Source of the DNA: an uncultured Gemmatimonadales bacterium
GTDB taxonomy: Bacteria; Gemmatimonadota; Gemmatimonadetes; Gemmatimonadales; GWC2-71-9
Direction: 5' to 3'
Assembly: GCA_963825055.1 (NCBI GenBank)
Contig: CAWGSK010000018.1
Location: 1 to 64,000, forward strand
Length of the DNA: 64,000 bases
Shown: piece by piece, positions 41,418 to 62,037 of the stretch
How the letters are laid out: each line of letters starts with the position of its first letter
Position numbering within the stretch: the stretch's first letter is position 1
Translations under genes and position numbers: made by a program
The notes under the pieces: model-generated
The model's input: only the letters and a program-made list of their open reading frames with translations
Databases searched by the model: none
Told to the model about the DNA's origin: nothing

Positions 41418-42116
41418 GTGAACCGCATCCTGATCATCGACAACGATCCCACGCTGGCGGAGACGCTGCGCCACAACCTCGAGCTCGACGGCCACGAGGT
41501 CGAGGTAGAGCAGGAGGGGGCGTACGGGCTGGCGCAGGCGCGTGAGTTCCAGCCCGACCTGGTCATCGCAAACCTGCTGATCCTCGAGTCGGACGAGTAC
41601 ATCCTGCTGCAGCAGCTCCGCGCGGAACATCCCTCCCTTCCCGTGCTGATCCTGGCCTCGCGCACGGAAGAGGCCGCCCGGTTGCCCGGCTTCCGGCTGG
41701 GTACGGACGACTTCCTGCTCCGGCCCGCGAGCGTGCTCGAGGTACATGGCCGCATCGACGCACTGCTCCGCCGGACCGACACGAACGGTACGCACCATCC
41801 AGAACCAGTGATGGACACGGTCATCCGGTTCGGCTCGATCGAGGTGCACCCCCCGACGCGGACGGTGCAGCGGGACGGTGAGGCGATATCGCTGCGGCCG
41901 AAGGAATTTGACCTGCTGATCGCACTGCTCAACCACAACGGACGCATCGTGTCCCGCCTCGAGCTGCTGCGCGAGGTCTGGGGATATCGCAGTTCGATCG
42001 TGTCGCGCACCGTGGATTCACACGTCGCGGAATTGCGGCGCAAGCTGGAACGCAACCCCTCCGAGCCCGACTTCATCCTCACCGTACGCAAGGCGGGATA
42101 CCGGCTGCAGCGCTGA
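41418..42116 (+). CDS. OmpR/PhoB-family response regulator with degenerate (pseudo-)receiver
   Basis: Winged helix intact (LRPKEFDLL, SRTVDSHVAELRRKLE, TVRKAGY); receiver has DLVIANL and FLLRP in place of D and K. Confidence 0.85.
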   Translation: MNRILIIDNDPTLAETLRHNLELDGHEVEVEQEGAYGLAQAREFQPDLVIANLLILESDEYILLQQLRAEHPSLPVLILASRTEEAARLPGFRLGTDDFLLRPASVLEVHGRIDALLRRTDTNGTHHPEPVMDTVIRFGSIEVHPPTRTVQRDGEAISLRPKEFDLLIALLNHNGRIVSRLELLREVWGYRSSIVSRTVDSHVAELRRKLERNPSEPDFILTVRKAGYRLQR

Positions 42117-42369: not shown

Positions 42370-45300
42370 ATGCGACCACATGCTGTGTCCGTGTTCTTGC
42401 GAGGATGGCGCCACGTTGCGCTGGCCGTGGCCGGATTCTGCCTCGCGGCGGGGACCGTCGCGGCGCAGGGCACCGGCAAGGTCGAGGGTCATGTTCGCGA
42501 CCAGGGCGGCGAGCCCATCCAGAACGCACAGGTGCGAATCGTGAACACCACCTTCGCCACCGCGACGAACGGTCAAGGCTACTACTTCTTCAACAACGTT
42601 CCCCCGGGCGAGGTCTCCATTCAGGCGGCATTCGTCGGGTACCAGAAGACCGAGGTTCGCAGTGTCCGCGTGCTGGGTGGCCAGACGCTGACCCAGGACT
42701 TCGCCCTCGAGCAGCAGACCATCACGATCGACTCGTTGGTGGTCATGGCCCGGCGGAACGATCTGGTCCCGCGTGACGCCGTGACCACGAAACAGATCAT
42801 TGACGGGCAGTACTCCGCGGCGCTTCCGGTGGACAACATCAACAGCCTGATCGCCATCCAGCCGGGCGTAAACGCGACGCCCGCCGGGGCAATCTCGATC
42901 CGTGGCGGCAGGGTGGACGAGGCCGCCGTCTATGTCGACGGCGTTCCCACAAGCCCCGGTTACCGGGGAAATGCCTTTGTCGGGTCCGGCGGGACTGCCC
43001 TCACGGTGCCGGAAAACGGCTTCATCGAGGCCTCGGTCACGACGGGTTCCTCCTCCGCGGAGGTGGGCAATGCCCAGGCGGGGATCATCAATATCGAGAC
43101 CCGGTCGGGCAGCGCCGCGTTCCGCGGCAACTTCGGGTATGAAACCGATGAGCCATTCGGGGTCAACCACAGCCAGGGCCTGAATCGCCTGCAGGGCAGC
43201 TTCAGTGGTCCCCTGCGTGAAAACCTGACGTTCTTCATGTCGGGCGTGCTGCAGGGCACCCAGTCGCCGGTGCCCGGCTTCGGTCAGGCGGATTACCCGA
43301 TCTTCGTTCAGGCGGGGATCGACACCACGGTCGCCGTACCAAACGCGACCACCACCAACGCCGATACGTCGTTCGTGGGCGTGTCCCAGTTCGCGATTTA
43401 TACCGGCAACTGTGATGCCTTCAGCGGCAGCGCCAACAGCCGGATCGCGGCTAACTATGGCGCCGGATGCCAGGGCGCCCGCCTGCCCTCGGCCGCGGCC
43501 ACCCAATACCAGCTGGCCGGCAAGCTGAACTACACCTTCGGTGCCGGGAACCGGCTGTTCCTGAGCTCCCAGCGGAGCCAGAACCAGGGCCGCAACTTCA
43601 ACTACCTCGGCCTGTACAACCCCCAGGCACTGACCGGCTTCCGCGCGGTCAACAACAACCTCACGCTGGGCTGGACCCAGAACCTGGCACGGTCCGCGGA
43701 GCGGGCGCTGGCGCTTGATGTGGCGCTCTCGTACCAGACGGACCAGACCATTGCCAGCCCGCTGACCCGGCAGAGCGAGATTGATACCCGCAATCCGTTC
43801 GGAGGGTTCATCCTGGGCGGCCTCGATTTCCAGTGGGACTTCGACAATTTCCCGGTCAATGACGAGCTGATCAACAATTTCCGGCTCAACACCCCGGGGT
43901 CCCGTCGTTCCCCGCTCGATCTCGAGAACCGGGACCAGTACGGCGTCATCGACAGCTACCGCAACAACGCGTATGGCGTCACCGGTTTCACCGAGGGCGG
44001 TTTCGCCAGTTCGAGCGGTCCTGGCGCTCGCCGGCTCTCGCTCTACAAGGAAAAGCGCTACATCGGCAAGGCCAACCTGGACTGGCAGCTCGACCGGTAC
44101 AACCGGATCAAGCTCGGCGGGCGCTTCACCCAGTACGACCTGCTCAGTTACTCACACAACCTCGTGAGCCAGGCGTTCTCGGACGCGTTCCACGAGAAGC
44201 CGGTCGCCTATGACCTCTTCGTCGAGGATCGTCTGGACCTCGGTGACGTGGTCCTGGTGGGCGGCCTGCGCTACGACTCCTATGACTCGCGGGCCAGCCG
44301 TCCGGCCGACTTCCCGCGGATCTCGTCAGCGCCCGACTTCGATCCCGCCGACCCGACCGCCGGCTGGGTACGGGACCAGAGCCACAGCTACCTGAGCCCG
44401 CACATCCAGGTCTCCTTCCCGGTGACGGAGCGCACGAATTTCCGGCTGTCTTACTCTCATGCCGTCCAGGCACCGGACTTTGGCGTGGTCCTGACGGGTA
44501 TCAACACCGACCTGGCCATCACCAACACGAACCACGTGTATGGCTCGGACCTGGACTTCGGGAAGTCCATCACCTTCGAGTTCGGCATCCGTCACGCGTT
44601 CAGCGACGACATGGTCCTGGACATCTCCGCGTACAACAAGGACAACCTGTCCAACGCGGCCGGCCGGCTCATCTCGAAGTTCGATCCGCTCTTCGGCCGC
44701 AACCAGGACATCCGCGTGATGACCACGGCCGACTTCGGCAACACGCGCGGAGTCGACGTCCGGCTCGACCGCCGGATCGGCCGGTTCTTCAACGGTGTCG
44801 TGGCCTATACGTACCAGGATGCCAAGAACACCGGCTCGAATCCATTCACGTACATCAACTTCGGCTCCCGGATCGTGAACCAGGTCTCGGGTGGCAACCA
44901 GCCGCCGCCGCAGTCGATCTTCCCGACCGCGACGAGCCGTCCCCATAGCCTCACCGGATCCTTCGCCCTGACCCTTCCGGAAGACTTCAGGGAAGGAACC
45001 ACCCTGGGTTCGATCCTGGGGAACGTCGGTATCACGGCGCTCTTCCGGTACGCGAGCGGCACGGCGTATACGCGCTGCCCGCAGGAGTCGGGGAACCAGG
45101 GTGTCCTGTCCGGGCAGGTATGCGCCCGGCAGTTCGAGGGAGACTTCTTCGGCGCCCGGACCCCGTCCACCAAGCAGCTCGACATGCGCTTCACGAAGGG
45201 CTTCGCGCTGGGCGGCCTCGACCTGACCGCGTACCTCGATGCCCGCAATATCCTCAATTTCAGGAACGTACTGGCCGTCTTCACGACGACCAACGACGTC

Positions 45301-45666
45301 GTGGATCGGGAGGAACAGATTCAGAACTGGGGGACCGACAGCACGTCCTTCAGCAATGAAGCGGCCGCCAACAGCCTCTATCAGGGCGATGGCGCCATCG
45401 ACCTTCGCTTTGGCGGGGCGGGCACCGCGGGATGCGGAATGTGGGTCACGGCCCAGGGCAGCCCGGGCGCCCCCAACTGCGTCTACCTCATTCGTGCGGA
45501 AGAGCGGTATGGGGACGGCGACCACGTCTTCAACCTGGCGGAACAGCGCCGGGCGTCCGATGCCGCCTACTTCGCCGGTGGGAGCCCCAGTGCCCCGGCC
45601 CGCGGGATCAACAACCTGACGGGTACGCCACGGCTCATGCGGCTGGGCTTCGAAGTGAACTTCTGA
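42370..45666 (+). CDS. TonB-dependent outer-membrane receptor with N-terminal CarboxypepD_reg-like domain
   Basis: Signal peptide; GKVEGHVRD..GEPI; plug QPGV...IRGGR..E....VDGV; GLRYD; C-terminal PRLMRLGFEVNF. Confidence 0.9.
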   Translation: MRPHAVSVFLRGWRHVALAVAGFCLAAGTVAAQGTGKVEGHVRDQGGEPIQNAQVRIVNTTFATATNGQGYYFFNNVPPGEVSIQAAFVGYQKTEVRSVRVLGGQTLTQDFALEQQTITIDSLVVMARRNDLVPRDAVTTKQIIDGQYSAALPVDNINSLIAIQPGVNATPAGAISIRGGRVDEAAVYVDGVPTSPGYRGNAFVGSGGTALTVPENGFIEASVTTGSSSAEVGNAQAGIINIETRSGSAAFRGNFGYETDEPFGVNHSQGLNRLQGSFSGPLRENLTFFMSGVLQGTQSPVPGFGQADYPIFVQAGIDTTVAVPNATTTNADTSFVGVSQFAIYTGNCDAFSGSANSRIAANYGAGCQGARLPSAAATQYQLAGKLNYTFGAGNRLFLSSQRSQNQGRNFNYLGLYNPQALTGFRAVNNNLTLGWTQNLARSAERALALDVALSYQTDQTIASPLTRQSEIDTRNPFGGFILGGLDFQWDFDNFPVNDELINNFRLNTPGSRRSPLDLENRDQYGVIDSYRNNAYGVTGFTEGGFASSSGPGARRLSLYKEKRYIGKANLDWQLDRYNRIKLGGRFTQYDLLSYSHNLVSQAFSDAFHEKPVAYDLFVEDRLDLGDVVLVGGLRYDSYDSRASRPADFPRISSAPDFDPADPTAGWVRDQSHSYLSPHIQVSFPVTERTNFRLSYSHAVQAPDFGVVLTGINTDLAITNTNHVYGSDLDFGKSITFEFGIRHAFSDDMVLDISAYNKDNLSNAAGRLISKFDPLFGRNQDIRVMTTADFGNTRGVDVRLDRRIGRFFNGVVAYTYQDAKNTGSNPFTYINFGSRIVNQVSGGNQPPPQSIFPTATSRPHSLTGSFALTLPEDFREGTTLGSILGNVGITALFRYASGTAYTRCPQESGNQGVLSGQVCARQFEGDFFGARTPSTKQLDMRFTKGFALGGLDLTAYLDARNILNFRNVLAVFTTTNDVVDREEQIQNWGTDSTSFSNEAAANSLYQGDGAIDLRFGGAGTAGCGMWVTAQGSPGAPNCVYLIRAEERYGDGDHVFNLAEQRRASDAAYFAGGSPSAPARGINNLTGTPRLMRLGFEVNF

Positions 45667-45737
45667 TACACGGGATACGCCGGTCGGGGCCTCGCGCTCC
45701 GGCCGGCGACCCTTTCCTGTGACCAAGCGAGGAAGCG

Positions 45738-48700
45738 ATGCATGCCATCATAGATCGAACGTCCCGGACCGGGTGGGTACCCCTGCTCCTGGCCATTCTG
45801 CTCCTGGTACCCCGGCCGGCACTGGCAGGACCGGAGCCGGGCGCCAAAAACACCCGCGGGTTCCGGCTGTTTGCCCGTGCCCTCGGGGCGCTCACGATCA
45901 ACCGTGTCTACTGCGGGCTGCAGTCGACCGGAAACGTGTGTGTGGACTCGAACGGTTCTTCCACGATCGGTGGCGGCTTCTGGCCGAAGGGTACGGCCGA
46001 CCAGTACGTCTTCAACTCCGGCCTGCAGGTGGCCGGCATCATCGGCCCTGACGGCGGCCCCTGGGCCGACGATACGACCGGCGCGTTCTTCTTTGATCCA
46101 AAGGGCACCACGGCCCACGGTGATGAAGTGGCGCCGATCTACAACACGACCAACCTGGCCGATGCGGCCTTCATCGCTGACGCGGCCACGAGCGACCCGG
46201 TGGCCCTGGCGGCCCGGGTGCCGAGCGGCGACGCGACGGCCGACATCTTCAATCCGCTCCTGCAGGGCCGGACCTCGGCCTCGCAGGGCGACGTCTGGTG
46301 GCTCACGTGGGACGGCAACCCGGGCCTGATCGCCGGCCGGCCGCACCCGCTGGGTGTCATGGTGGAACAGCGCGGCATGGGCTGGAACTACCCGGCGGGC
46401 AATGAAGACATCGTCTACTTCGTCTACACGTTCTACAACGTCACCTCGACCGACCCGTCGGTGTATGCCGCGGTCCGGCCGGGGATGCGGGACATCCTGA
46501 TCCAGAAGGCCCAGGAGTTCCAGCAGCGGAACAACAGCACCTTCGGCGTGACCCTGCCGAGCGGGGGCTACACCATCACGGACCTGTACGCCAACTTCTC
46601 GGCGGACATGGACGTGGGCAGCGCCGGCAACAACTACGCGTCGGTCAATGTCCCGTTCGGGCTGGGCTACACCTACGAGAACACCTTCAGCCGCGTGGAT
46701 GGCTGGTCCTTCGACCCGGCCATCTTCTCCAAGCCCTTCTTCTCCGGCGCCGGCTTCGTCGGCGTGAAATACCTGAAGAGCCCGGAGATCAACGGCCAGG
46801 AAGTGGGCCTGACGCTGTTCAGCAACACCACGAACGGCGGCGGCTTCTCCGATCCGCAGAACACGACACAGCTGTGGCGCTACGTCTCCGGCAACATCAA
46901 CACGGCCGCCGGCGACAACGCCTGTAACTTCGACCCGGTCAATACGAAGATCTGCTTCATTCGCGGCAGCGGTCCGTTCGACATGCGCTTCTTCCAGTCG
47001 TCCGGCCCGCTGACCCTGGGCCCGGGCGAGTTCGGCTCGGTAGTGGTGGCGTACATCTTCGCCGCCCCGGTCCAGACCGGCACCTGCCCCGGCCCCAGCT
47101 GCGACATCGCACCGGGCAACCCGACGATCATCGCGGGCCTGACCAATCCGGCCATCGTGGCGAATGGGGTCAACCCGATCGACTCGCTGACCGGCTTCCT
47201 GAGCGCCACGGACACCAGTGGTAACGGGACCCTGGAGCAGGGCGAGTTTGACGTGGTCCCGGGCTCCCTGCTCGGCAAGGCGCGGGTGGCGCAGGCCGTG
47301 TTCGACGGTGGCTTCCTGCTCCCGTTCGCTCCGGAACCGCCGGAGTTCTTCCTGGTGCCGGGCGACAACCAGGTGACGGTGCTGTGGCGCCCCTCGGTCT
47401 CCGAGACCACGGGCGACCCGTACTACCAGCTGGCCTCGGATCCGACGAATTCCCTGTATGACCCGAACTACCGCCAGTTCGACGTCGAAGGCTACCGGGT
47501 CTACCGGGGCCGGGTGGACGCGCCGAACTCGCTGACCCTGCTCGCGCAGTTCGACTACGGCGGCACGGTCATTTCGGACTACGCCGGCCAGATCAACCCG
47601 AGCCCGCTCTGCGCGCCGGAACTGGCCATCACGACCGACTGCCCCACGACGTACGATCCCATCACCCCGGGCGTGCCCCGGACGGCGCACAATGACGTGC
47701 CGCTGGTGGGACAGATCGTCCAGGTGAAGCTGGGCGAGCGGACGGCACTGGCCGACGGGACGGCGATCGTCCTGATCGCGGACACGGCGGTGACGGGCAA
47801 CAACACCGTATATCCGCAGCTGTCGGATAACGGCGTGCCGTTTGTGTACGTGGACCAGACGCCACGGAACAACTTCCGGTACTTCTACTCCGTGACGGCG
47901 TTCGACATCAACTCGTTCCAGTCCGGCCCGTCGAATCTCGAGTCGCCGCGCAACACCAAGCCGGTGACCCCGCGGCGGCCAGCCGGGAACTACGTGAGTA
48001 GCGGGACGATCACCAGCGCCAACATCGAAGGCCGTGGCGTGGTGCTCGACCCGACCCAGCCGCTCCCGACCATCGACCCAGCCACGGGGCAGTTCTCCGG
48101 GCCGTTCCCGGCGGCGAACGCCTGGACCATCGGGTTCGGTGACTTCGTGGCCAGCGTGCTGAGCACCTCCGGCAGCTTCTCCGCCACGCTCGACAGTATT
48201 CAGATCGGCTCGCCGTACGGCGGCACCCCGCACGTGTACTGGTGGACGGCGGCGGCCGGTCCCGATACCTCCATCTTCTCGATCCCGATTCTACAGCAGC
48301 AGGAATCCGGGGTGGTCTCCGGGTCGACCCAGTTCGGGACCGTGGCCGTGGACCCCTCCCTCGCGGCGCGGTACGGCGGCGGGCAGGGCTACCGGCTCCA
48401 GGGCAAGGTCAGCATGCAGTTGCCCAGTGTGGAGACCGAAACCCTGTATGGCCGCGGCTGTGTCAACAGCCAGACCACGGCCGGCCGGCCGGGTTTCACC
48501 CGCGAGGCCACGGCGTCAGGGGCCTCCAAATGTGCCTATAACGGCTCCCGGTGGTTTGACGGCCCCTCACCCGCCAATAACGAGACGAAGGTGGATCCGA
48601 ACGGGGGCAACGTCGAGAACTTCAGCGGCGATCCCTATACGGACTACAACAATGCCGGCGAGCTCTCCGGCGTGGACACCATCCACATCACCCAGGCCTA

Positions 48701-49655
48701 CCAGTCGGTGGGCGGCGGCGAGTACCGGCCGGTCGAGGGGGCGATGGGAGGTGTGCATCGAGCAGCAGACTACAACGTCTACTGGGGGAATGGCGGCACC
48801 GTGGACTCGGTGATCGACGTGACCCACAACGTGGTCGTGCCGTTCAGCCCCGATCTGGGGGGAACCTGGGGGATCCTGAACCCGGGAGACGCCCTGCCGG
48901 CGGCGGGGTCTTTCGATGGACGGGCGGAACTGACATCCACCGACATGGGGTGTGTCGAGCCCCTCCGCAGCCTGGGAACGAGCATCTCCTGCGGCGCCAG
49001 TGGACCGACGTATCAGTTGAGCCAGACGGCCGTGCCGGGCCCGATCGCGTTCTTCAGCACCGGGTTGGCGGCAGCGACGTCGGCGCCGGCGTCGAACGAA
49101 TCGGGTTTCGTCTTCTACCTGGCCGGCGACTGGTTCACGATGGCCCTGAACAGCTCCGTGCCCGCAGCCGGGACGGTCTGGTCACTCCGGCAGTACATCG
49201 GGGCGATCAACTTCGGGAACGGTTCGGCCGGCAACTACGGGCCGTACGAGTTCCAGAACGTGGAGGACGTCCTTCCCATGACGGCGGTGGGAGCGACGTT
49301 GCGGGTGAGTTATGACGTGACGAACCAGATCAACGCGCCGACGGACGCGGACCTGAGCCAGGTCCACACGGTGCCGGATCCGTACTACGTGACGAACGAG
49401 TTCGAGCAGACGACGGACACGAAGATCATCAAGTTCGTGAACCTGCCGGACAATGCGATCATCCGGATCTACTCCTCGAGCGGGGTGCTGGTGCGGCTGC
49501 TGGAGCACCACGCCGCGGCCTTCGGGGGGGCGGAGACCTGGGACGTGCGGAACCGCAACAACCAGGTGGTCGCCAGCGGGGTGTACTTCTACCACATCGA
49601 GAGTGGCAACGCCCGGCGGGTGGGCCGCTTTACGATCGTCAACTTCGCTCAGTAG
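45738..49655 (+). CDS. Large secreted protein with FN3-like module and C-terminal T9SS type-A-like (FlgD-Ig) sorting domain
   Basis: Signal peptide ending ALA; PGDNQVTVLW, EGYRVYR, YFYSVTAFD; C-terminus VPDPY...IKFVNLP...IRIYSSSGVLVR...WD.RN.....VASGVYFYHI. Confidence 0.8.
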   Translation: MHAIIDRTSRTGWVPLLLAILLLVPRPALAGPEPGAKNTRGFRLFARALGALTINRVYCGLQSTGNVCVDSNGSSTIGGGFWPKGTADQYVFNSGLQVAGIIGPDGGPWADDTTGAFFFDPKGTTAHGDEVAPIYNTTNLADAAFIADAATSDPVALAARVPSGDATADIFNPLLQGRTSASQGDVWWLTWDGNPGLIAGRPHPLGVMVEQRGMGWNYPAGNEDIVYFVYTFYNVTSTDPSVYAAVRPGMRDILIQKAQEFQQRNNSTFGVTLPSGGYTITDLYANFSADMDVGSAGNNYASVNVPFGLGYTYENTFSRVDGWSFDPAIFSKPFFSGAGFVGVKYLKSPEINGQEVGLTLFSNTTNGGGFSDPQNTTQLWRYVSGNINTAAGDNACNFDPVNTKICFIRGSGPFDMRFFQSSGPLTLGPGEFGSVVVAYIFAAPVQTGTCPGPSCDIAPGNPTIIAGLTNPAIVANGVNPIDSLTGFLSATDTSGNGTLEQGEFDVVPGSLLGKARVAQAVFDGGFLLPFAPEPPEFFLVPGDNQVTVLWRPSVSETTGDPYYQLASDPTNSLYDPNYRQFDVEGYRVYRGRVDAPNSLTLLAQFDYGGTVISDYAGQINPSPLCAPELAITTDCPTTYDPITPGVPRTAHNDVPLVGQIVQVKLGERTALADGTAIVLIADTAVTGNNTVYPQLSDNGVPFVYVDQTPRNNFRYFYSVTAFDINSFQSGPSNLESPRNTKPVTPRRPAGNYVSSGTITSANIEGRGVVLDPTQPLPTIDPATGQFSGPFPAANAWTIGFGDFVASVLSTSGSFSATLDSIQIGSPYGGTPHVYWWTAAAGPDTSIFSIPILQQQESGVVSGSTQFGTVAVDPSLAARYGGGQGYRLQGKVSMQLPSVETETLYGRGCVNSQTTAGRPGFTREATASGASKCAYNGSRWFDGPSPANNETKVDPNGGNVENFSGDPYTDYNNAGELSGVDTIHITQAYQSVGGGEYRPVEGAMGGVHRAADYNVYWGNGGTVDSVIDVTHNVVVPFSPDLGGTWGILNPGDALPAAGSFDGRAELTSTDMGCVEPLRSLGTSISCGASGPTYQLSQTAVPGPIAFFSTGLAAATSAPASNESGFVFYLAGDWFTMALNSSVPAAGTVWSLRQYIGAINFGNGSAGNYGPYEFQNVEDVLPMTAVGATLRVSYDVTNQINAPTDADLSQVHTVPDPYYVTNEFEQTTDTKIIKFVNLPDNAIIRIYSSSGVLVRLLEHHAAAFGGAETWDVRNRNNQVVASGVYFYHIESGNARRVGRFTIVNFAQ

Positions 49656-49727
49656 GCCAGGGACCAAGGGGGGCGGGGCGGCCACGGTGGTGGCCCCGTC
49701 CTCCCCATCCAGGAGAGGTGAGATTCA

Positions 49728-50849
49728 ATGCGTGACTTTTCCCTGAAGCGGTGGTTGGTGGTAGGCGCCCTGCTGAGCGGGCTGCCGGCCGTGGGGCTGG
49801 CGCAGGACGTCAACCAGGACAACACGCCCTATGGCACGACGGCGGCGGAGTTTCTGCTGCTGGGAGCCGGGGCGCGGGGCACGGCGCTGGGCGGAGCCTA
49901 TTCGGCGATCGCCAGCGACGTGAGTGCCCTGTACTACAATCCCGCCGGCGCGGCGCTGATGGCGCGGCCGGGGGCGATGCTGGGGACGTATGACTACGTG
50001 GCCGGGACCCGGTACACGTGGGGCGGGATTGCGTTCCCGTTCGGCAACGGGGCCCGGACGTTCGGGCTCCAGCTGGGGACGTTCGGGTTCAATGACCAGC
50101 CGGTGTACACGGTGGACCAGCCGGAAGGCACGGGGTCGGTGTACTCGGTGAATGAGACGTTCGCGGGCCTGACGTACGCGGAGAACTTCTCGGACCGCTT
50201 CAGTGCGGGCATCACGGCGAAGTTCGTCTCGGACAACCTGGGCGATGCGAACGGGTCGGCGTTTGCGGTGGACTTCGGGACGAACTTCCACGCGATGCTG
50301 AACAACCATCCGGTGAAGTTCTCGTTCGTGCTGGCGAACCTGGGCACGGACCTGAGCTACAGCGGGGACGCGCTGAACACGGGCTCGGCGCGGGATCCGC
50401 TGCCGGGCGAGGACCCGGTGCCGAGCCTGGACCAGCCGGCGCGGCTGCGGACGAAGGGCTTCCCGCTGCCGACGACGTTCCGGGTGGGGCTGGCGTACGA
50501 CCTCCTGACGGGGGCGTCGAACCGGCTGACGGTGCTGAGTGACTTCAACCAGCCGAACAACAACTCGGCGGGCTTCTCGGCCGGGGCGGAGTGGATGCTG
50601 GACCAGCTGGGGGGCAGCGCCTTCGGGGTCGCCCTGCGGGGGAGCTACTCGTACAACCCGGCGAACAACCTGGAGCCGGCCAGCCTGTCGTCGACGGCGC
50701 TGCTGGACGAGGAAAACCTCCAGGGCCTGGCGTTCGGCGGCGGGCTGAACTACCAGACGGGCAACTTCCGCCTGGGCGTGGACTACGCCTGGAAGTACAT
50801 GGGCGTGCTCGGCTCGACCAACTTCTTCAGCTTCAACATCGGCTGGTAA
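49728..50849 (+). CDS. PorV/PorQ-family outer-membrane beta-barrel
   Basis: FLLLGAGARGTALGGAY.AIASDVSALYYNPAG; AVDFG, LP..FRVG, GAEW, ALRG.Y, DYA; terminal W. Confidence 0.88.
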   Translation: MRDFSLKRWLVVGALLSGLPAVGLAQDVNQDNTPYGTTAAEFLLLGAGARGTALGGAYSAIASDVSALYYNPAGAALMARPGAMLGTYDYVAGTRYTWGGIAFPFGNGARTFGLQLGTFGFNDQPVYTVDQPEGTGSVYSVNETFAGLTYAENFSDRFSAGITAKFVSDNLGDANGSAFAVDFGTNFHAMLNNHPVKFSFVLANLGTDLSYSGDALNTGSARDPLPGEDPVPSLDQPARLRTKGFPLPTTFRVGLAYDLLTGASNRLTVLSDFNQPNNNSAGFSAGAEWMLDQLGGSAFGVALRGSYSYNPANNLEPASLSSTALLDEENLQGLAFGGGLNYQTGNFRLGVDYAWKYMGVLGSTNFFSFNIGW

Positions 50850-50860
50850 CCCTGCATACG

Positions 50861-50889
50861 GCGCCCCGGCGGGCATCCCGCCGGGGCGC
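50861..50889. other. Intercistronic GC hairpin without U-tract
   Basis: gcgccccggcggg-cat-cccgccggggcgc perfect 13-bp stem. Confidence 0.7.
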
Positions 50890-50894
50890 AAGGG

Positions 50895-52343
50895 ATGGAT
50901 CACATGGGAGTAATCACGCTGCTGGCCGCCGTCGGTGCCCTGACGGGTCCCGTACGACATGCACCGTTGGTCCCCGGCGGGAACGGGGACGAACTCATCG
51001 TGCACGCCGTGCGCTTCTACCGGGGCGTGGGCGATTCCGAGACCCGGACGGCGGTGAAGGCCTTTGTGCAGGTACCCTACCTGCACCTTCGCCCCGCCGG
51101 AGACATGGCAACCTTCACTGTCTCCGTCGTCGTTCGGGACTCGGCCGGAACCGCGCTCACGCAGGATGCGTGGCCGGCCCAGCACGTCCGGGCAGAGTTG
51201 TGCCAGCCGGGCGCCTACAGCGTGAACATGATGGAATTCCAGGTGCTGCCCGGATCGTATGACCTGGAAGTGGTGGTGACCGACTCGGTCTCGGGCACGG
51301 TCATGACCGCGTCCGCGCCGATTACCGGGTTTGCGCGCCCGCCCCGGGTCTCGGACCTGCTGCTGTCTCCCAGCATCAGGCCCACCGGGGGCGATTCCAC
51401 CCCGTCCGGAGGCGAGTGGCGCAGTGGGAACGTCATGGTGGCCTCCGCCGCGCAGCTGCACCTGACGCCACTTCGGGCCAATCTCTTCTACCTGCTGGAG
51501 GTATACACCGACTCCCTCACGGCAGGCACGATCTCGCTCGACGTGGTGGACAGTACGGGACGTGTCCTCCTGAACCGGCCGCCCCGCCCGATGCAGCTGG
51601 CGGCGGGCGGCGGGGTGCTGATGGGCCAGGTGGACCTCGAGGGCCTCCCCGAGGGGACGTACACGCTCAAGACGCATCTTTCCCTCCCGTCGGGCACCGC
51701 CGAGCAGGCAGCGACCTTTACCATGGCCGGCCTGCAGGAGACGGTCGCGCGCGCGGCGGAGATGCGTGAGGCCAGCCGTTCCTCGGACGCCGGCTACTTT
51801 GCGGGCCGGACGGATGAGGAATTGAAGGCCCTTGCCGAGCCGCTGGAGTACATCGCGGGGAGTGGCGAGATGAAGCCGTTCGACGGGCTGTCAGTGCAGG
51901 CCAGGCGCGATTTCCTCGCCGCGTTCTGGGCCCGGCGGAATCCGGACACGTCCGGGAGAACCAACCCTGCGCGCGACGGATTCTATTCGGCCATCGACTA
52001 CGCGAACGCGGCCTTCCGCGAGCCGGGGCGTAATTCACGCCCCGGATGGAAGACTGAGCGCGGCGAGGTATGGGCACGATACGGCAAGCCGGACGAGGAA
52101 CTGGAACGGGTGCGCTCCGGGATCGCCCCCACCTACGAGGTGTGGCGTTATACGAACGGTCGCGCGCGGTACTTCGTCTTCGCCGATCGCACGGGGCTTG
52201 GGCACTACTCCCTGCTGACCTCGAACGACCTGCAGTTCCGCGGGGTGATGGACTGGCGCGACCGCCTGGGGGAGGATGCCGTCCGCGACATCGGCCAGTT
52301 CCTGAGCGTCGACTTCTACCAATCCGCGCGGCCCGACTTCTAG
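50895..52343 (+). CDS. GWxTD-domain protein (variant GWKTE)
   Basis: FLAAFWARRNP, YANAAF, GWKTERGEVWARYGKPDE, YEVWRY, FVFAD; N-terminal Ig-like domains. Confidence 0.85.
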   Translation: MDHMGVITLLAAVGALTGPVRHAPLVPGGNGDELIVHAVRFYRGVGDSETRTAVKAFVQVPYLHLRPAGDMATFTVSVVVRDSAGTALTQDAWPAQHVRAELCQPGAYSVNMMEFQVLPGSYDLEVVVTDSVSGTVMTASAPITGFARPPRVSDLLLSPSIRPTGGDSTPSGGEWRSGNVMVASAAQLHLTPLRANLFYLLEVYTDSLTAGTISLDVVDSTGRVLLNRPPRPMQLAAGGGVLMGQVDLEGLPEGTYTLKTHLSLPSGTAEQAATFTMAGLQETVARAAEMREASRSSDAGYFAGRTDEELKALAEPLEYIAGSGEMKPFDGLSVQARRDFLAAFWARRNPDTSGRTNPARDGFYSAIDYANAAFREPGRNSRPGWKTERGEVWARYGKPDEELERVRSGIAPTYEVWRYTNGRARYFVFADRTGLGHYSLLTSNDLQFRGVMDWRDRLGEDAVRDIGQFLSVDFYQSARPDF

Positions 52344-52453
52344 AGGGACCGGATGGACGGGGGACGAGATTGGCGGCGGGGCGGGTCGGTGACCCGCCCC
52401 TCCTGCTGTACGGCGATTCTCCTATCTTTGCCGGGACTCCTTCACGAGCCTCG

Positions 52454-53103
52454 ATGGAATATCACGAGATCACGGTACCCAGAACCGCGCGCTTTGCCCT
52501 CTCGGCTGATCCGGGCGATGCCACGACCGAAATCTGGTTCGCCTGTCACGGGTACGCCCAGCTCGCGGGCAGCTTCCTGGAATCCATCATGCCTGCCGCT
52601 GCTCCCGGGCGCGTGCTGGTGGCGCCTGAGGGCCTCTCCCGTTTCTATCCCGACAGTGGGACCGGGCGGGTGGGGGCATCGTGGATGACGAAGGAGGGAA
52701 GGGAATCCGAAATCCGGGACTACGTGGCATTACTGGATGCCGTACGTGACGAAGTGACCCGCGGCCTTCCCTCGCCCCCCGCATCACGATCCTCGGCTTC
52801 TCCCAGGGGGCGGCTACGGCGTTCCGATGGGCGGTGCGCGGGAGGACACCCCCGAACCGCCTTATCCTCTGGGGAGGCGGCGTTCCCGGCGATCACGACC
52901 CGGTAGCCACCCGACAGGTCCTCGGCGACACTCCGATGACCCTGGTAACCGGTACCCGCGACCGCTATACCAGCCCTTCGGTCATGGAACGTGACGCAGC
53001 CAGACTCCGGGAGACGGGCATGGCGGTGGATGTCGTGATTTTTGACGGAGGACACCGGCTGGATGATGCGACGCTGCTCGAACTGGCGGACAGGACGGAC
53101 TGA
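52454..53103 (+). pseudogene. Alpha/beta-hydrolase (phospholipase/carboxylesterase) split by a 1-nt frameshift
   Basis: First frame CHGYAQ, APEGLSRFY, VGASWMT; second frame RITILGFSQGAA...FDGGH; junction at C6 run 52775-52780. Confidence 0.8.
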
Positions 53104-56086: not shown

Positions 56087-56225
56087 AAAGAGGACTCCCG
56101 ACAATCGCGTCCCTCTTCTTGCTCTTTGCCTCTCGCGAATTGCCATCCCTCGCTTTTTGCCTGTTGTCTTTGCGAATCGGGCGCTATCTTAATCGGTGAC
56201 CCATCACCATACCCCCAGAGGGGAC

Positions 56226-57878
56226 ATGAACCAACGCCAGATGTACCGGCGCACGCTGCCGAGTCAGCGGACGCTGCTGGGCTGGCTGTTTTCCATCCGG
56301 GTGCTCCTGGCGATTGCGGGTGTTCTGGGCGCCTCGGTCACGTGGGTGGAGGCGCCGGATGTCGCCTTCATCATCACGGTCGCCGTTCTGCTCGCCTTCA
56401 CGGTCACGGCCTACGGCTACTGGTTCGTCTGGATCAAGGGGCGGGTACCGGGGAACGTTTTCCTCTTCCTGCAGGGCGCGGTCGACCTGGGTCTGGTCAC
56501 CACGATCGTGCACTTTACCGGCGGCAGCCTCAGCGGCTTCTCGGCGCTGTACGTCCTTGTCATTGCCTCCTATACCACGCTGATGAGCTTCCGCGCCGGG
56601 CTTGCCTTCGCGACGGTTGCGGCGCTGTCCTATTTCCTCGACGCCATCGTCAACCCCGGCGCGCTGGGCATCGCGTTCTGGGGACAGATTGCCGTCTTCG
56701 CCGCCGTATTCGGTGTCGTCGCCGGCATGATCTCGCGCCTGCGCGAAGTGAGCGAGGAGCAGGAGTCGCTCCAGACGGAGCTCATGCGGGTCCGCCTCGA
56801 GGCAGACGATATCCTGCGGAACATCCGTTCTGGTGTCCTCACCGTGGACGGCCAGGGCCGGCTCGCGTACATCAACCCGACCGCCGAGCGCCTGCTGCAG
56901 TTGAATGGGGAGACGCTGACCGGCTACCCGGTGCTGGACCAGCTCAAGCTGCGGTCGGCCGAACTCTGGGCGGCGATCGTTTCCGCCATCCGGACCGGGC
57001 GCAAGACCAATCGCGGGGAGGGCATGGTGCAGCTCGAGGACGGCCGGCTGTTCCCGATCGGGCTCAGCACCACGACCTTCGAGGAAGACTCGGACCAGGC
57101 TCCCTCGGTGACGGCCATCTTTACCGACATCTCGGACTCCAAGCGCCTCCAGGAGCTGCACCTCCGTGCCGAGCGCCTCGAGGCGGTCGCCTCGCTGAGC
57201 GCTGCGCTGGCGCACGAGATCCGCAATCCCCTGGCATCGATCCGGAGTGCGGTGGAACAGCTTGCCCGCTCCGCCAAGGCCGATGACGACGAGCGGTTCC
57301 TGGCGCAACTCATCGTGCGCGAGAGCGACCGCCTGAGCCGGCTGCTGAGCGAGTTCCTGGACTTCTCCCGCGTCCGTGCGACCCATTTCGACCCCGTGGA
57401 CCTCCATGAAGTCGCGGTCGCGGCCTCCCGGCTCGTGCGTGAACACCCTCATGCGGGCGGTGATGCCGTGATCGAAGTGGAGGGAGGGCGCACGACGGTC
57501 GAGGGAGACGAAGACCTCCTGCACCGTGTTCTTGTCAACCTGCTGTTGAATGCCGTTCAGGCAGCCTCCGGCACCGTCAGGATCAAGGTGAACGTCGGCC
57601 CGGCGCTGGTCAGCGATCTGCCTCCCGGCTGTGGCATCAGCAACCCGGTCCGGCTTTCCGTCAGCGACGACGGGCCCGGGATCCCGGAGGAATTGCGTGA
57701 GCGGCTCTTCGAGCCCTTCGTCACCGGCCGGCCTGGGGGGAGCGGCCTCGGACTGGCCATCGTCCAACGCGCGGTGGAAGCGCACCGCGGGCTCGTGCTC
57801 ATGGAAACATCCAGCGGGTCCGGTACCACCTTCACGATCTTTTTCCCGGCCAAGTGGTCGGCGGAGGACTTGGCATGA
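56226..57878 (+). CDS. pilS: PilS-like membrane sensor histidine kinase (PAS + HisKA + HATPase)
   Basis: ~6 TM with VDLGLVT..VHFTGG..S.FS.LY; LAHEIRNPL; NLLLNA; DDGPGI; GSGLGL; adjacent to pilR and pilA. Confidence 0.8.
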   Translation: MNQRQMYRRTLPSQRTLLGWLFSIRVLLAIAGVLGASVTWVEAPDVAFIITVAVLLAFTVTAYGYWFVWIKGRVPGNVFLFLQGAVDLGLVTTIVHFTGGSLSGFSALYVLVIASYTTLMSFRAGLAFATVAALSYFLDAIVNPGALGIAFWGQIAVFAAVFGVVAGMISRLREVSEEQESLQTELMRVRLEADDILRNIRSGVLTVDGQGRLAYINPTAERLLQLNGETLTGYPVLDQLKLRSAELWAAIVSAIRTGRKTNRGEGMVQLEDGRLFPIGLSTTTFEEDSDQAPSVTAIFTDISDSKRLQELHLRAERLEAVASLSAALAHEIRNPLASIRSAVEQLARSAKADDDERFLAQLIVRESDRLSRLLSEFLDFSRVRATHFDPVDLHEVAVAASRLVREHPHAGGDAVIEVEGGRTTVEGDEDLLHRVLVNLLLNAVQAASGTVRIKVNVGPALVSDLPPGCGISNPVRLSVSDDGPGIPEELRERLFEPFVTGRPGGSGLGLAIVQRAVEAHRGLVLMETSSGSGTTFTIFFPAKWSAEDLA

Positions 57879-59248
57879 GCCAGAAACCATCCGTACTGGT
57901 CATCGACGACGAATCCGGCATCCTGGATACGCTGCGGATCCTCCTCAAGAAGGAAGGATTCGAGGTGACCACGGCACAGGGCGGAAAGGCCGGACTGGAG
58001 GCAATCACGTCCGGCACGCACGACATCATCCTGACCGACGTGCGGATGCCGCAGGTCACCGGACTGGATATCCTGCAGGCCGCCCGGGACCAGGATCCGA
58101 TGACCCCCGTCATTCTCATGACGGCACAGGCCTCACTCCAGACCGCCATCGGGGCCGTCAACGCCGGCGCGTTCTATTACATCCAGAAGCCGTTCGCCAA
58201 TGACGAGCTCGTCGCCATCCTCCGGCGGGCCGGCGACTATCGGGCCGTCAAGGTTGAAAACAAGCACCTGAAGACCGAGATCCGCCGCCGGGAGGGTGAC
58301 GAGTTCACGCGTCCCATCGGCAAGTCCAGGCGCTTCATGGAAATGCTCAGGCTTGCGGAGCAGGTCGCGCCGACAGACTCGACGGTGCTGATTCAGGGTG
58401 AAAGCGGCACGGGAAAGGAAGTCATCGCCAAGCACATCCACAGCCTCTCGAATCGGGCCGACGGGCCGTTCCTCTCCATCAACTGCGGCGCCCTGCCGGA
58501 AAACCTCCTTGAGAGCGAGCTCTTCGGACACGTGAAGGGGAGCTTCACCGGCGCGGTCCGGGACAAGCAGGGACTGTTCGCCGCCGCGCGCAGCGGCAGC
58601 TTTTTCCTTGACGAAGTCGGCGAGATGACGCCGGGTCTCCAGACCAAGCTCCTCAGGGTACTGCAGGAGCGGGAAGCGATCCCGGTCGGCGCGACCGAGG
58701 CGATTCCCGTGGATGTCCGGATCATCGCCGCCACTAACCGCGACCTCGAGGAGGAGATGCGGCGGGGGACCTTCCGATCCGACCTCTTCTACCGCCTGAA
58801 CGTCATCGCCATCGACCTTCCACCGCTCCGGGACCGGCGGGAGGACATCCTGTCGCTCATGGAGAACTTCCTCCTCCGTCTGGCGGATGGCGGGGAGCCA
58901 AAGGTGTTGAGTTCCGAGGCGCTCGATGCGGTGATGGTCTATGACTGGCCGGGCAACGTGCGGGAACTGGAGAATGCGCTCGAGCACGCCGAGGTCCTGA
59001 CCCGCGGCAACACCATTGAGCCATCGGCCCTCCCGGAGCGGATTACCAAGCGGCGAAAGGAGCCGCTGGTCTCGGAGCGGTCCTATGAGAACCCCACCCT
59101 CGAAATCATCGAGCGGGCCTACATCATGTGGGTGCTGCAGGCGGAGGGGGGGAACAAGACCCGGGCGGCGGAGGTCCTGGGGATCGATCCGTCGACGTTG
59201 TACCGGAAGCTGAGCCGGTACGAGGAGTCCGGCGCGAAGGCGGAGTAG
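57875..59248 (+). CDS. pilR: PilR-like sigma-54 response regulator
   Basis: Receiver IDDE/TD/KP; GESGTGKE; ELFGHVKGSFTGA; FLDEV; DLFYRLNV; WPGNVREL; Fis HTH. Confidence 0.88.
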   Translation: MSQKPSVLVIDDESGILDTLRILLKKEGFEVTTAQGGKAGLEAITSGTHDIILTDVRMPQVTGLDILQAARDQDPMTPVILMTAQASLQTAIGAVNAGAFYYIQKPFANDELVAILRRAGDYRAVKVENKHLKTEIRRREGDEFTRPIGKSRRFMEMLRLAEQVAPTDSTVLIQGESGTGKEVIAKHIHSLSNRADGPFLSINCGALPENLLESELFGHVKGSFTGAVRDKQGLFAAARSGSFFLDEVGEMTPGLQTKLLRVLQEREAIPVGATEAIPVDVRIIAATNRDLEEEMRRGTFRSDLFYRLNVIAIDLPPLRDRREDILSLMENFLLRLADGGEPKVLSSEALDAVMVYDWPGNVRELENALEHAEVLTRGNTIEPSALPERITKRRKEPLVSERSYENPTLEIIERAYIMWVLQAEGGNKTRAAEVLGIDPSTLYRKLSRYEESGAKAE

Positions 59249-59252
59249 CCGG

Positions 59253-59472
59253 GATCGAGAGGTCGAGGAGTCGAAAGGTCGAGGGGGTGACGGGGAACGT
59301 TGCCCCTGTGCGGTTTCTTGCGCAGATCCGCGCGTACCGGGTTAGAACCCAAATCCCTTCCCGCCGTAATCTTTTATCAGGATCAGGCACCCAGATTTGC
59401 CATCTCCCAGTCGGGCGACCGCCCCCGACGGGTTGCCCCGGCGCCCCCGACCCCTCGACTTTTCGATCTTCT
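59253..59472. repeat. Facing 8-mer arrays (GTCGARRR)n ... (TCGAYYYY)n enclosing part of the pilA upstream region
   Basis: tcgagagg tcgaggag tcgaaagg tcgagggg at ~59255-59290; ccgacccc tcgacttt tcgatctt at ~59447-59470. Confidence 0.65.
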
Positions 59473-59587
59473 GGCGGTTTTCTCTCGCAAAATCCCCCGG
59501 ACCGCACCGGCAGGAGGGCGCAACAAGGCGCAGTCATCAACTGGTAACTTGTTAATCGGCAATGGTTTATGCCTGACAGCCTGGACA

Positions 59588-59603
59588 TGGCATACGTGTT
59601 GCT
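59588..59603 (+). promoter_or_regulatory. Sigma-54 (-24/-12) promoter of pilA
   Basis: TGGCAT-ACGTG-TTGCT matches TGGCAC-N5-TTGCW with exact GG-N10-GC spacing, ~80 nt before the pilA ATG. Confidence 0.85.
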
Positions 59604-59681
59604 TTCACTGAGCCCGGAAGTCGGAGCGTGCAGTATCGCCGGACAATGCCGGTCGTTCACTCAACTCGAAGGAGCAGCACA

Positions 59682-60104
59682 ATGAACCGCAAGGGTTTCA
59701 CCCTCATCGAACTTCTGATCGTTGTGGTGATCATCGGCATCCTGGCCGCGATCGCGATTCCGAAGTTCAGCAATACCAAGCAGAAGGCCGTTCTCGCGTC
59801 GATGAAGTCCGACCTGCGCAATTTCGTGACCGCGCAGGAAGCCTTCTTCAGCGACAACAATGACTACGCCGGCAACATCGGCCCCGCGCAGATCAACGGC
59901 GTCGGTGGCGCGGGTACCGTCGCCTTCACGCCGACCATCGGCAACGCCTTCGTGCCTACGTGGATCAGCGCCGCCGGCTTCAGCGCGGTTGTGACGAACC
60001 CGGCCGTGACGGGCGTTCCGTCGAGCTGCGGTGTCTACATCGGTGTCCCGGCCAACGCGCCGAACGCCGCTGTGGTGCAGGAAGGTGCCCCGGGCTGCTG
60101 GTAA
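59682..60104 (+). CDS. pilA: Type IVa major pilin
   Basis: MNRKG/FTLIELLIVVVIIGILAAIAIP class III signal with E5; C-terminal Cys pair; AAGGAG RBS. Confidence 0.92.
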   Translation: MNRKGFTLIELLIVVVIIGILAAIAIPKFSNTKQKAVLASMKSDLRNFVTAQEAFFSDNNDYAGNIGPAQINGVGGAGTVAFTPTIGNAFVPTWISAAGFSAVVTNPAVTGVPSSCGVYIGVPANAPNAAVVQEGAPGCW

Positions 60105-60134
60105 GCCCGGGCAGTTGATCCAAGGCAGTCCGGG

Positions 60135-60171
60135 CGGGCGGCGGAGAGACTCTTCCGCCGCCCGTTCCCTT
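60135..60171 (+). terminator. Hairpin terminator after pilA
   Basis: cgggcggcgga-gagactct-tccgccgcccg followed by ttccctt. Confidence 0.6.
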
Positions 60172-60231
60172 GCCTCCGCACATCGCACTACCCCGGTCCC
60201 CCCTGACCGGTCAGCCAGGAAAGGCAGATCC

Positions 60232-61491
60232 GTGCGCTTGCTGGTCCTCAGTGCCGACCAGGCACTCATCGAGCTGCTCCGTGGGACTTTCGGCCAGGCC
60301 GATACCCGCGTGCTCGACCCCACCGAAGCCGATCTCGCGCGACGCGCGGCCGGCATGAAGGATGTGGACGCCGTCGTGGCCGACCTGGCCGGCGGGGCGG
60401 CCGCATTCCTCGGGGAATGGCATGCAGCGGGTGGACGGGCCGCCATCCTGGTGGTCCAGCAGGCCGGCGACCGTCCCGGGCCCGACTCGGCCGACATTCC
60501 TCTCGATTATCTCCCGCGGCCCGTTTCGGCGGAGCTGCTGGCCTTCCGCCTGCGGCGCCTGCAGGACGCCGCCCGGGCACGCCGGGACGTCCGGGATCTG
60601 CGCTCGCGGCTCGCGGCACAGGAGCAGAGCGGACGCTTTATCGCGGAATCGCCCGTAACCAGGCAGTCGCTTGACCGGGCGCGGATTCTCGCCGGTACGG
60701 AGGGTGACGTGCTGATCGTTGCCGAATCCGGGGCCGGCAAGCATGCCCTGGCCGCCCAGATTCATGCCCTGGGCCCGGAGCGCGAAGGGCCCATGCTCTC
60801 CCTGCCGAACGGGGGCGAACCCGAACTGATCGAGTCGCTGCTCTTCGGTAACGGCAAGGGCGCCGAGGCGGGCCTGACCCGCCAGGTTGCAGGGGGATCC
60901 CTGCTGCTGGAGGAACTCTCGGCCATTCCCGGCGAGCTGCTGGCGCGGCTGGCGCAGGATCGTGACCGCAACGGCCACGCCTTCCGCCTCATCGCCCTCA
61001 CAGACCGTGAACCTGCCCCGGAGCACTTTGGCCAGCCCGCCGCCCGACGGCTGGTGGACGAACTGCTCCGTCGCGAAGTCCAGCTTCCGCCCGTCCGGCA
61101 GCGTCGCGAAGACATCCCGGCCCTTCTGGCCTGGTTTGCCCAGCAGGCGGCCCAGCGGCACGGCCGGGCGGTCAGCATCTCACCGGATGCGCTGGCGCTC
61201 CTGACGGTCTATCCATGGCCCGGCAATGTGCGCGAACTGCGGCAGGCCGTTGAGCGTGCAGCGGGCGTCGCCATCGGCCGGCCGCTCGAGTACGCCGACT
61301 TCGGGTTGATCGCGACCCACGAGGCCGCCGGGGTCAGCCTCAAGGCCCAGGTGGAAGCGTTCGAGCGCCAGGTCATCGCCCAGGTACTGGAGACGGCCAG
61401 CGGCAGCCGGCGTGAGACGGCTCGCATGCTTGGTATCAGCCTGCGTACGCTGTTTTACAAGATTCGGCGGTACAGTCTGGACGGGAAATAG
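60232..61491 (+). CDS. Degenerate NtrC-like (sigma-54 activator-like) regulator lacking GAFTGA
   Basis: AESGAGK, ESLLFGNGKGAEAG, LLLEEL, RQRREDIP, YPWPGNVREL, intact Fis HTH. Confidence 0.8.
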   Translation: MRLLVLSADQALIELLRGTFGQADTRVLDPTEADLARRAAGMKDVDAVVADLAGGAAAFLGEWHAAGGRAAILVVQQAGDRPGPDSADIPLDYLPRPVSAELLAFRLRRLQDAARARRDVRDLRSRLAAQEQSGRFIAESPVTRQSLDRARILAGTEGDVLIVAESGAGKHALAAQIHALGPEREGPMLSLPNGGEPELIESLLFGNGKGAEAGLTRQVAGGSLLLEELSAIPGELLARLAQDRDRNGHAFRLIALTDREPAPEHFGQPAARRLVDELLRREVQLPPVRQRREDIPALLAWFAQQAAQRHGRAVSISPDALALLTVYPWPGNVRELRQAVERAAGVAIGRPLEYADFGLIATHEAAGVSLKAQVEAFERQVIAQVLETASGSRRETARMLGISLRTLFYKIRRYSLDGK

Positions 61492-61592
61492 GTCGAGAGG
61501 TCGAGAGGTCGAGAGGTCGAGGGGTCGCGGGGTCGCGGAGTGAGTCGAACCTGAGCAACGATTCAACGATTCAACGACTCAACCACTCAACG
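61491..61592. repeat. 8-mer arrays (GGTCGAGA)n and (CAACGAYT)n
   Basis: ggtcgaga x3 then ggtcgcgg units; caacgatt caacgatt caacgact caaccact. Confidence 0.75.
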
Positions 61593-61680
61593 CTTTTCAC
61601 CCCCTCTTCGCACGATTCCGGTCCCACACGGATCCCGGTCCGTTCCTATCCTCGGTGAGAACATTCACCGGGGATTTTTC

Positions 61681-62037
61681 ATGGGTTCCTCCCGCGGGTT
61701 TTCGCTGGTCGAGATCATCGTCGCCCTGAGCATTCTCAGCCTGGCCCTCGTGCCGCTGATGAGCGGGACGCGGGGCGAGGTGGCCATGAACGGGGCCGGG
61801 CTGCTCAGCGGCCGCATGGCGCTGAGCGCCGCTTCCGCCCTGGACCGCGCGCGGCTGGCGAGGAGCGGCCCGGCCTGTCTCACGGTCGTCGGGGGCACCG
61901 TGAACCGGAATCGTGTCCTGCTCCATACGAGCGCCATGCCCACCGCCGGGAGGATCGATCTCGCAGTCTCCCTCTCGGCTGTTCTCCCCGGGCAGACCCT
62001 CACCGATTCGCTGACGGTCCGGCTCAGGTGCAACTGA
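61681..62037 (+). CDS. Minor pilin (PilV-like)
   Basis: RG/FSLVEIIVALSIL prepilin motif. Confidence 0.8.
   Translation: MGSSRGFSLVEIIVALSILSLALVPLMSGTRGEVAMNGAGLLSGRMALSAASALDRARLARSGPACLTVVGGTVNRNRVLLHTSAMPTAGRIDLAVSLSAVLPGQTLTDSLTVRLRCN

Follow-up and report, generated by a model that had tools for sequence, protein, structure and literature searches.

A conserved receptor-cargo-PorV gene triad in Gemmatimonadota and its possible role in coupling type IX secretion to TonB-dependent uptake

Introduction

In the attachment complex of Porphyromonas gingivalis, PorU and PorZ are anchored on the cell surface by the barrels PorV and PorQ, as described in excerpts of PMC12365241, and passages of PMC12618676 describe type B carriers (SprB-SprF, Fjoh_3952-Fjoh_3951) whose genes lie directly downstream of their cargo genes in repeated pairs and which are proposed to serve as anchors. 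The binding of tails to PorV and the need for energy are treated in parts of PMC10994853. The occurrence of type IX secretion systems (T9SS) beyond the Bacteroidetes has been touched upon in several places: excerpts of PMC11285876 state that it may occur in Gemmatimonadetes, T9SS models matched Bacteroidetes only in the part of PMC4793230 concerned with them, and sections of PMC12611786 survey SprA across the phyla of the Fibrobacteres-Chlorobi-Bacteroidetes (FCB) group. Here, we describe a gene triad encoding a TonB-dependent receptor, a large cargo protein with a type IX tail and a PorV-family barrel, followed by a gene for a GWxTD protein, in a stretch of 64,000 nucleotides (the window; positions 1 to 64,000 of contig CAWGSK010000018.1, assembly GCA_963825055.1) from an uncultured Gemmatimonadales bacterium.

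The locus shares traits with three known systems. As in the pairs PorZ-PorQ and PorU-PorV, the immunoglobulin (Ig)-like tail of the cargo is closest to that of PorZ and the neighbouring barrel is of the PorV/PorQ family, but the body of the cargo is unrelated (only the tail matches), a TonB-dependent receptor adjoins and no PorU was found in the class. As in type B cargos with their PorP/SprF carriers, the carrier gene lies directly downstream of the cargo gene and such pairs are repeated, whereas the tail is of type A and PorZ-like, the carrier is of the PorV family and the unit includes a gene for a receptor. The likeness to SusC/SusD (RagA/RagB) consists of a receptor with a CarboxypepD-type N-terminal domain, followed by the gene of a surface protein and multiplied many times over in some genomes; however, the receptor scores far below the SusC cut-off and its partner is a 1305-aa beta-rich tailed protein instead of a helical lipoprotein. 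The module may be an analogue of SusCD, as the earlier note on this DNA proposed. Literature searches, whose coverage left out subscription papers, returned no paper on the triad, which is apparently an undescribed but conserved combination of known principles.

Results

Four open reading frames (ORFs) on the plus strand occupy positions 42370..52343 of the window (Table 1) with intergenic gaps of 71, 72 and 45 nt, and the co-oriented, closely spaced genes pointed out in an earlier note on this DNA, made from the letters alone, are borne out by these coordinates. The window is contig C18 of an assembly of 3.5 Mb (87% complete, 6% contaminated), and the named relatives of its genes are Gemmatimonadales. 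A search with the PorV as query gave 95 loci of which 80 from Gemmatimonadales were kept, and among those with enough flank the cargo gene stood directly before PorV in 76/76, the receptor before the cargo in 54/58, the GWxTD gene after PorV in 71/77 and a lipoprotein gene after GWxTD in 61/61. The gene order, whose absence in relatives would have counted against the reading in the earlier note, is thus conserved, and because of this the cluster is not a product of chance.

The triad is found in other classes as well. Forty PorV loci from other genomes were picked by hand among 150 listed of 263 matches, with long flanks favoured, and 27 of them held a full-length PorV of the triad type; a receptor and a tailed protein lay directly upstream in 26 of these 27, and the last is truncated where its contig stops. 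A triad was absent from all of the remaining 13, three of which lie behind a PorU gene. One family, likely Glassbacteria judging by the names of homologues, carries 10-19 PorV-family copies per genome. Ten further hand-picked loci revealed the four-gene order in another class (locus L142) and triads without GWxTD elsewhere. Since the triad recurs without GWxTD in other lineages, the unit is the triad of receptor, cargo and PorV. A fixed unit of four genes was rejected, as GWxTD stands behind 4/27 of the triad-type PorV loci and a close GWxTD match was found in 0/9 likely Glassbacteria genomes; confinement of GWxTD to the Gemmatimonadales was likewise rejected on account of the full order in L142 and, in part, in L143. 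A triad with a receptor frame of 1279 aa and no GWxTD was also seen in a single-contig genome of another order (L149, genome G057). Across 13 paralogues the distances of receptor, cargo body and PorV correlate (rho 0.57-0.66), for which linkage alone would suffice.

Table 1. Coordinates of the genes and domains of the module in the window
Feature	Position	Strand	Basis and remarks
TonB-dependent receptor	42370..45666	+	1098 aa; ORF call and domain profiles
Cargo protein	45738..49655	+	1305 aa; ORF call; family match in tail only
Cargo domain 1, beta-supersandwich (residues ~38-528)	45849..47321	+	Model fold match
Cargo domain 2, fibronectin type III fold with insertions (~528-750)	47319..47987	+	Model fold match
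Cargo variable region (831-1190), beta-rich	48228..49307	+	Model; paralogue comparison
Cargo C-terminal domain (1200-1305), T9SS-type Ig sandwich	49335..49652	+	Fold and profile match
PorV/PorQ-family barrel	49728..50849	+	373 aa; triad-specific paralogue group
GWxTD protein	50895..52343	+	482 aa; TIGR04514
Tail and PorV block	49335..50836	+	99-100% DNA identity to C30 copy

Family matches of the cargo are weak, confined to its last 90 residues and close to the cut-offs of both tail types. On TIGR04183 the tail scored 21.1 bits against a cut-off of 23 in one scan and 26.1, above the cut-off, in another. It is not a type B tail: CHU_C gave 21.2 bits against 27, TIGR04131 did not match, and the neighbouring barrel is of the PorV family with no match to PorP/SprF. 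The T9SS-type tail proposed in the earlier note is upheld by the model, in which the C-terminus is an Ig-like beta-sandwich (predicted local distance difference test, pLDDT, 93.9). Its best match among 48,161 chains was the PorZ tail (5m11; Z 13.4, root mean square deviation (rmsd) 1.6, 89 residues aligned), followed by PorU (6za2, Z 9.7) and the C-terminal domains of mirolase (8.9) and NucA (8.3); Foldseek gave an E of 4e-7, and a profile search led to the same two proteins by sequence (PorU 3e-4, PorZ 3e-3). The barrel, which the earlier note had rightly placed in the PorV family, reached 147.6 bits on the PorV/PorQ family profile NF033709 (cut-off 90) and stayed below the equivalogs for PorV (NF033710, 50.9 against 250) and PorQ (NF033711, 68.3 against 220); its profile match to the solved PorV of Flavobacterium johnsoniae had an E of 2e-17.

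PorV and tail were modelled together from alignments of 46 rows (99 pairs thinned to 47, two frameshifted rows dropped and the window's pair added), and the complex scored 0.90, the best of three controls 0.00. The mark applied to this score was reached by 116/157 solved pairs and 2/215 mismatched pairs, the model runs agreed in at least 81% of contacts and the pLDDT of the partners was at least 79. As PorV-tail complexes have already been solved, the score may stem from those known structures, and the result shows likeness and not binding. The window PorV is predicted to bind the cargo tail, and of the interfaces named in the earlier note it is this contact that was predicted. The same note spoke of a dedicated PorV, which holds for the cargo family as a whole but not for one protein, since the PorV occurs twice in the genome in identical form, and another three cargo copies lack an adjoining PorV.

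A quick tree built from 40 barrels unites 21 triad PorVs, that of the window among them, with a support of 97; a branch with a support of 79 places all 26 triad PorVs on one side, by which a single group of all of them is neither shown nor rejected. PorVs linked to PorU group with stand-alone PorVs of Gemmatimonadales (support 98), apart from the triad PorVs, and the stand-alone type of the relatives (as in L121) had no match in the source genome. A divergent PorV/PorQ-like barrel on a long branch of this tree (C34:168408-169556, L004; 36.5 bits against 90) could be BamG-like or a general carrier. At C12:506923-507378 (L141) a frame of 151 aa comprises nothing but a type A-like tail behind a signal-like N-terminus (TIGR04183 E 0.001, under the cut-off; no Pfam match), and a similar tail-only frame of 159 aa lies behind a triad-type cargo in L150.

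The search for sprA suggested in the earlier note was successful: the source genome encodes a SprA of 2042 aa (C30:5783-11911) with 506 bits against a cut-off of 200. Among 101 genomes of the phylum a PorV-family gene was found in 86, SprA in 81 and the tail type of the cargo in 48. All 48 carriers of this tail type have SprA and none of the 20 genomes lacking SprA has the tail (0/20), although these genomes, being kin, are not independent. None of the 86 genomes of the class, the source genome at its 87% completeness and 66 genomes with SprA among them, gave a PorU (0/86), which was found in 15/15 genomes of other classes that served as positive control; cleavage of the tail by PorU thus has no counterpart at the gene level in this class. 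GldM and GldN were each found in 0/101 genomes by searches that had no positive control, and GldK, which was searched in the source genome alone, gave a weak match under the cut-off. A role of the receptor as a general energy source for SprA was rejected, as 33/81 genomes with SprA lack this tail type.

The receptor has a signal-like N-terminus, a CarboxypepD_reg domain, a plug (PF07715, 22.7 bits, just under the cut-off of 23.9; E 1.4e-4), a barrel (PF00593, 54.7 bits against 27) and a terminal Phe. Residues ~121-127 form a stretch which, compared by eye with the consensus, we take to be TonB-box-like, and the genome has five matches to TonB_C, four of them over the cut-off. With 31.3 bits on the SusC profile TIGR04056 (cut-off 368.25) the receptor is not a SusC, and no solved relative was found by sequence at E<=0.01. 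A true SusC with 638.8 bits on the same profile is encoded elsewhere in the genome, and the module therefore comes on top of SusCD and not in its place. The lack of a SusD-like lipoprotein among the four genes, as stated in the earlier note, was confirmed by family scans, which gave no SusD match in these genes, in the two flanking ORFs scanned or in the lipoprotein encoded by the fifth gene of the main copy described below. The four-gene picture given in that note needs correcting in one respect: in this genome and in relatives, the operon's main copy includes a lipoprotein gene in fifth place.

For the cargo, 1629 relatives were counted among 8000 scored candidates, and the named ones are from Gemmatimonadales or Gemmatimonadota; scans with family profiles gave no match to an enzyme family. 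Two AlphaFold2 models, whose alignments of 60 and 65 rows were drawn from 270 homologues, had a pLDDT of 89.8 (residues 31-1230) and 93.9 (750-1305). In the model, domain 1 is like the non-catalytic N-terminal domains of enzymes of the glycoside hydrolase (GH) families GH15, GH94, GH116 and GH65, and like mutarotase-like proteins: it matched 9ju0 with Z 19.3 and an rmsd of 3.2 over 254 aligned residues, and 1lf6 and 1ulv with Z 18.6, in agreement with a Foldseek search. A catalytic (alpha/alpha)6 barrel is absent from the model according to DSSP. Domain 2, one of the stretches best conserved between distant triads, matched the fibronectin type III (FN3) fold of titin (Z 11.9, rmsd 2.0, 97 aligned). 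The region 831-1190, which is modelled with good quality, is the part that differs between paralogues within one genome; no fold match was reported for it in a search dominated by the tail, and an atlas search came back blank. The conserved positions of domain 1 in 17 distant triad proteins are mostly Gly and Pro, with a few Asp, Arg, Lys and Asn at 12-16/17, and conserved D, R, H and W residues are seen within the Gemmatimonadales family.

A second, main copy of the module lies on the minus strand of contig C30 (25270-35236) and ends in a fifth gene, absent from the window copy, that encodes a lipoprotein of 543 aa with a PPC domain. About 13 kb beyond it lies sprA, with an Oar-like receptor and lptF/G between. 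C30 is the ancestral site, with flanks that match those of most relatives. Between the copies, the N-terminal half of the receptor and the GWxTD gene have a synonymous divergence (dS) of 1.4-1.6, and the duplication is therefore old, whereas the tail and PorV are identical in protein with dS of 0.00 and 0.01. The front half of the cargo is 95-98% identical, and its residues 831-1190 share 74% amino acid identity at a dS of 0.75. To judge from these sequences, the pattern suggests that gene conversion maintains the uniformity of tail and barrel and lets the variable region stay distinct. Four other genomes have a second cargo-PorV pair with PorVs 99-100% identical in DNA; one of them is a mosaic of the same kind, its variable region being 47% identical, and the other three fit recent duplication. 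That the identical block is an assembly artefact is not favoured, as contigs from three runs (X1-X3, of one study and possibly of the source sample of the assembly) agree with a real repeat: one X1 contig spans exactly 49335-50836 with three other letters, and in X3 the sequence after the PorV is, as translated by eye, the beginning of the GWxTD gene of C30.

Frame changes in the assembly interrupt three more cargo copies that have no adjoining PorV (one on C6, two on C12), and on C34 two receptors of the family seen here stand without cargo. The orphan cargos lie at C6:12847-16687 and C12:366132-373804 inside a region present on both contigs, and their broken state may be due to assembly error or strain mixture.

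The fourth gene is a GWxTD gene, as the earlier note had it, with both family cut-offs passed (TIGR04514, 68.6 bits against 28; PF20094, 37.6 against 26.9). The motif reads GWKTE in the window copy, and the hydrophobic N-terminus has no lipobox; the protein is probably periplasmic. No solved relative was found by sequence, and an atlas search returned its own family alone. A close GWxTD match was present in 34/101 genomes of the phylum, and within the family GWxTD and tail occur together in 23 genomes, are both missing in 18 and are discordant in 3/44. Gene linkage is the one hint that it might be an assembly factor, as the earlier note held possible. Most triads outside the Gemmatimonadales lack it; as the fourth member it is old, yet the module can do without it. 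Other GWxTD-like proteins with tetratricopeptide repeats (C7:81484-86795, C12:549796-553675, L102, L120) have their genes next to triads, immediately after that of an Oar-like receptor or after that of a BamB-like propeller, which hints that such proteins have a general role at the outer membrane.

Neither promoter nor terminator excess was found at the operon, and no RNA holder was listed for it. An OmpR-family response regulator is encoded just upstream of the receptor (window 41418-42116), as it is in L055. Positions 56196-63940 hold a PilS/PilR-like sensor and sigma-54 regulators, followed by genes for a type IV pilin and minor pilin-like proteins. Runs X1 and X2 each have one extra base at 52775, which suggests an assembly error with a frameshift in the hydrolase-like ORF 52070-52906.

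Discussion

The reading that on balance seems probable to us is that the cargo is exported and anchored on its cognate PorV, where it captures a polymer or other ligand for the adjacent receptor. The cargo would pass the inner membrane by Sec and then leave through SprA by virtue of its type IX tail, remain uncut on the barrel encoded right after it and, displayed there on the surface, capture substrate for the receptor encoded right before it. That it stays on the barrel is suggested by the missing sortase, by a tail nearest to two tails that are not cut and by the presence of one barrel per cargo gene. Also in favour of this reading are the conserved gene order, the grouping of triad PorVs apart from those linked to PorU, the co-occurrence of this tail type with SprA and the joint copying and homogenisation of tail and PorV. 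The substrate may be of a glycan type, as the supersandwich fold by itself would indicate. A bolder version, in which receptor, cargo and PorV form a stable complex with the 140-kDa, PorV-pinned cargo as a lid of the receptor, a swappable domain that selects the substrate and a stripped-down T9SS that has SprA but neither sortase nor known motor, is put forward tentatively and could well prove wrong.

Several observations weigh against anchoring for uptake. Excerpts of PMC10994853 and PMC12618676 portray the PorV of F. johnsoniae as a recycled shuttle and indicate that the tail may lose affinity outside SprA. As GldM and GldN were not found in 101 genomes by searches that had no positive control, the exit of the cargo from SprA is left unexplained. 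The tail sits at the type A cut-off in score, and the sole hint of a substrate is a fold common to non-catalytic domains and to YidC. Cargo-PorV pairs without a receptor occur in 4/58 loci, and together with the orphan cargos and orphan receptors they mean that the partnership is not obligatory at the gene level.

These receptor-less pairs could instead reflect a cargo that is anchored on its PorV but serves, independently of the receptor, as adhesin or surface-coat protein, the receptor being no more than co-regulated. The FN3 domain and the variable distal region of the cargo would suit an adhesin, the pairs have been duplicated without the receptor in four genomes, and the pairs of type B cargo and carrier are, in the account given in parts of PMC12618676, for the most part putative adhesins. 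However, in the other genomes the receptor is retained directly upstream in 26/27 triad-type PorV loci, over different classes and over numerous paralogues of one genome, and co-regulation alone would seldom outlast so many duplications, so that we hold this explanation to be unlikely. The recycling of PorV for type A tails in F. johnsoniae raises the alternative of a family-specific shuttle that takes the cargo out of SprA and then either passes it on to the receptor or sets it free, in which case the cargo would be a lid on the receptor or a soluble carrier bringing ligand back to it; the source genome, with five cargo genes against two PorV genes of the triad type, would fit such a use. A stoichiometric use is instead suggested by genomes with 10-19 copies, in which each triad has a PorV gene of its own, the tail is nearest the permanently held tails of PorZ and PorU, and no PorU was found in the class to cut it, which makes a shuttle somewhat less likely still. 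Least probable among the alternatives, in our opinion, is that the cargo represents a new family of surface enzymes and cleaves or alters a polymer whose products the receptor imports. The supersandwich is catalytic in some lyases and mutarotases among the matches listed, and the conserved D, R, H and W residues within the Gemmatimonadales family are in its favour, but the cargo model has no catalytic barrel, the positions of domain 1 conserved among distant triads are mostly Gly and Pro and no enzyme family was matched.

With PorU not found (0/86) and the known motor undetected, the triad of receptor, cargo and PorV would allow the anchoring and extraction of SprA cargo to be put to the test. 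If anchoring for uptake is correct, a function could be named for one large conserved uncharacterised protein of the phylum, and, should the bolder version hold as well, TonB-dependent importers would have a third way of acquiring a lid, pinned by a barrel instead of a lipid. Anchoring for uptake would also couple type IX secretion directly to TonB-dependent uptake in a phylum that is common in soil and sediment.

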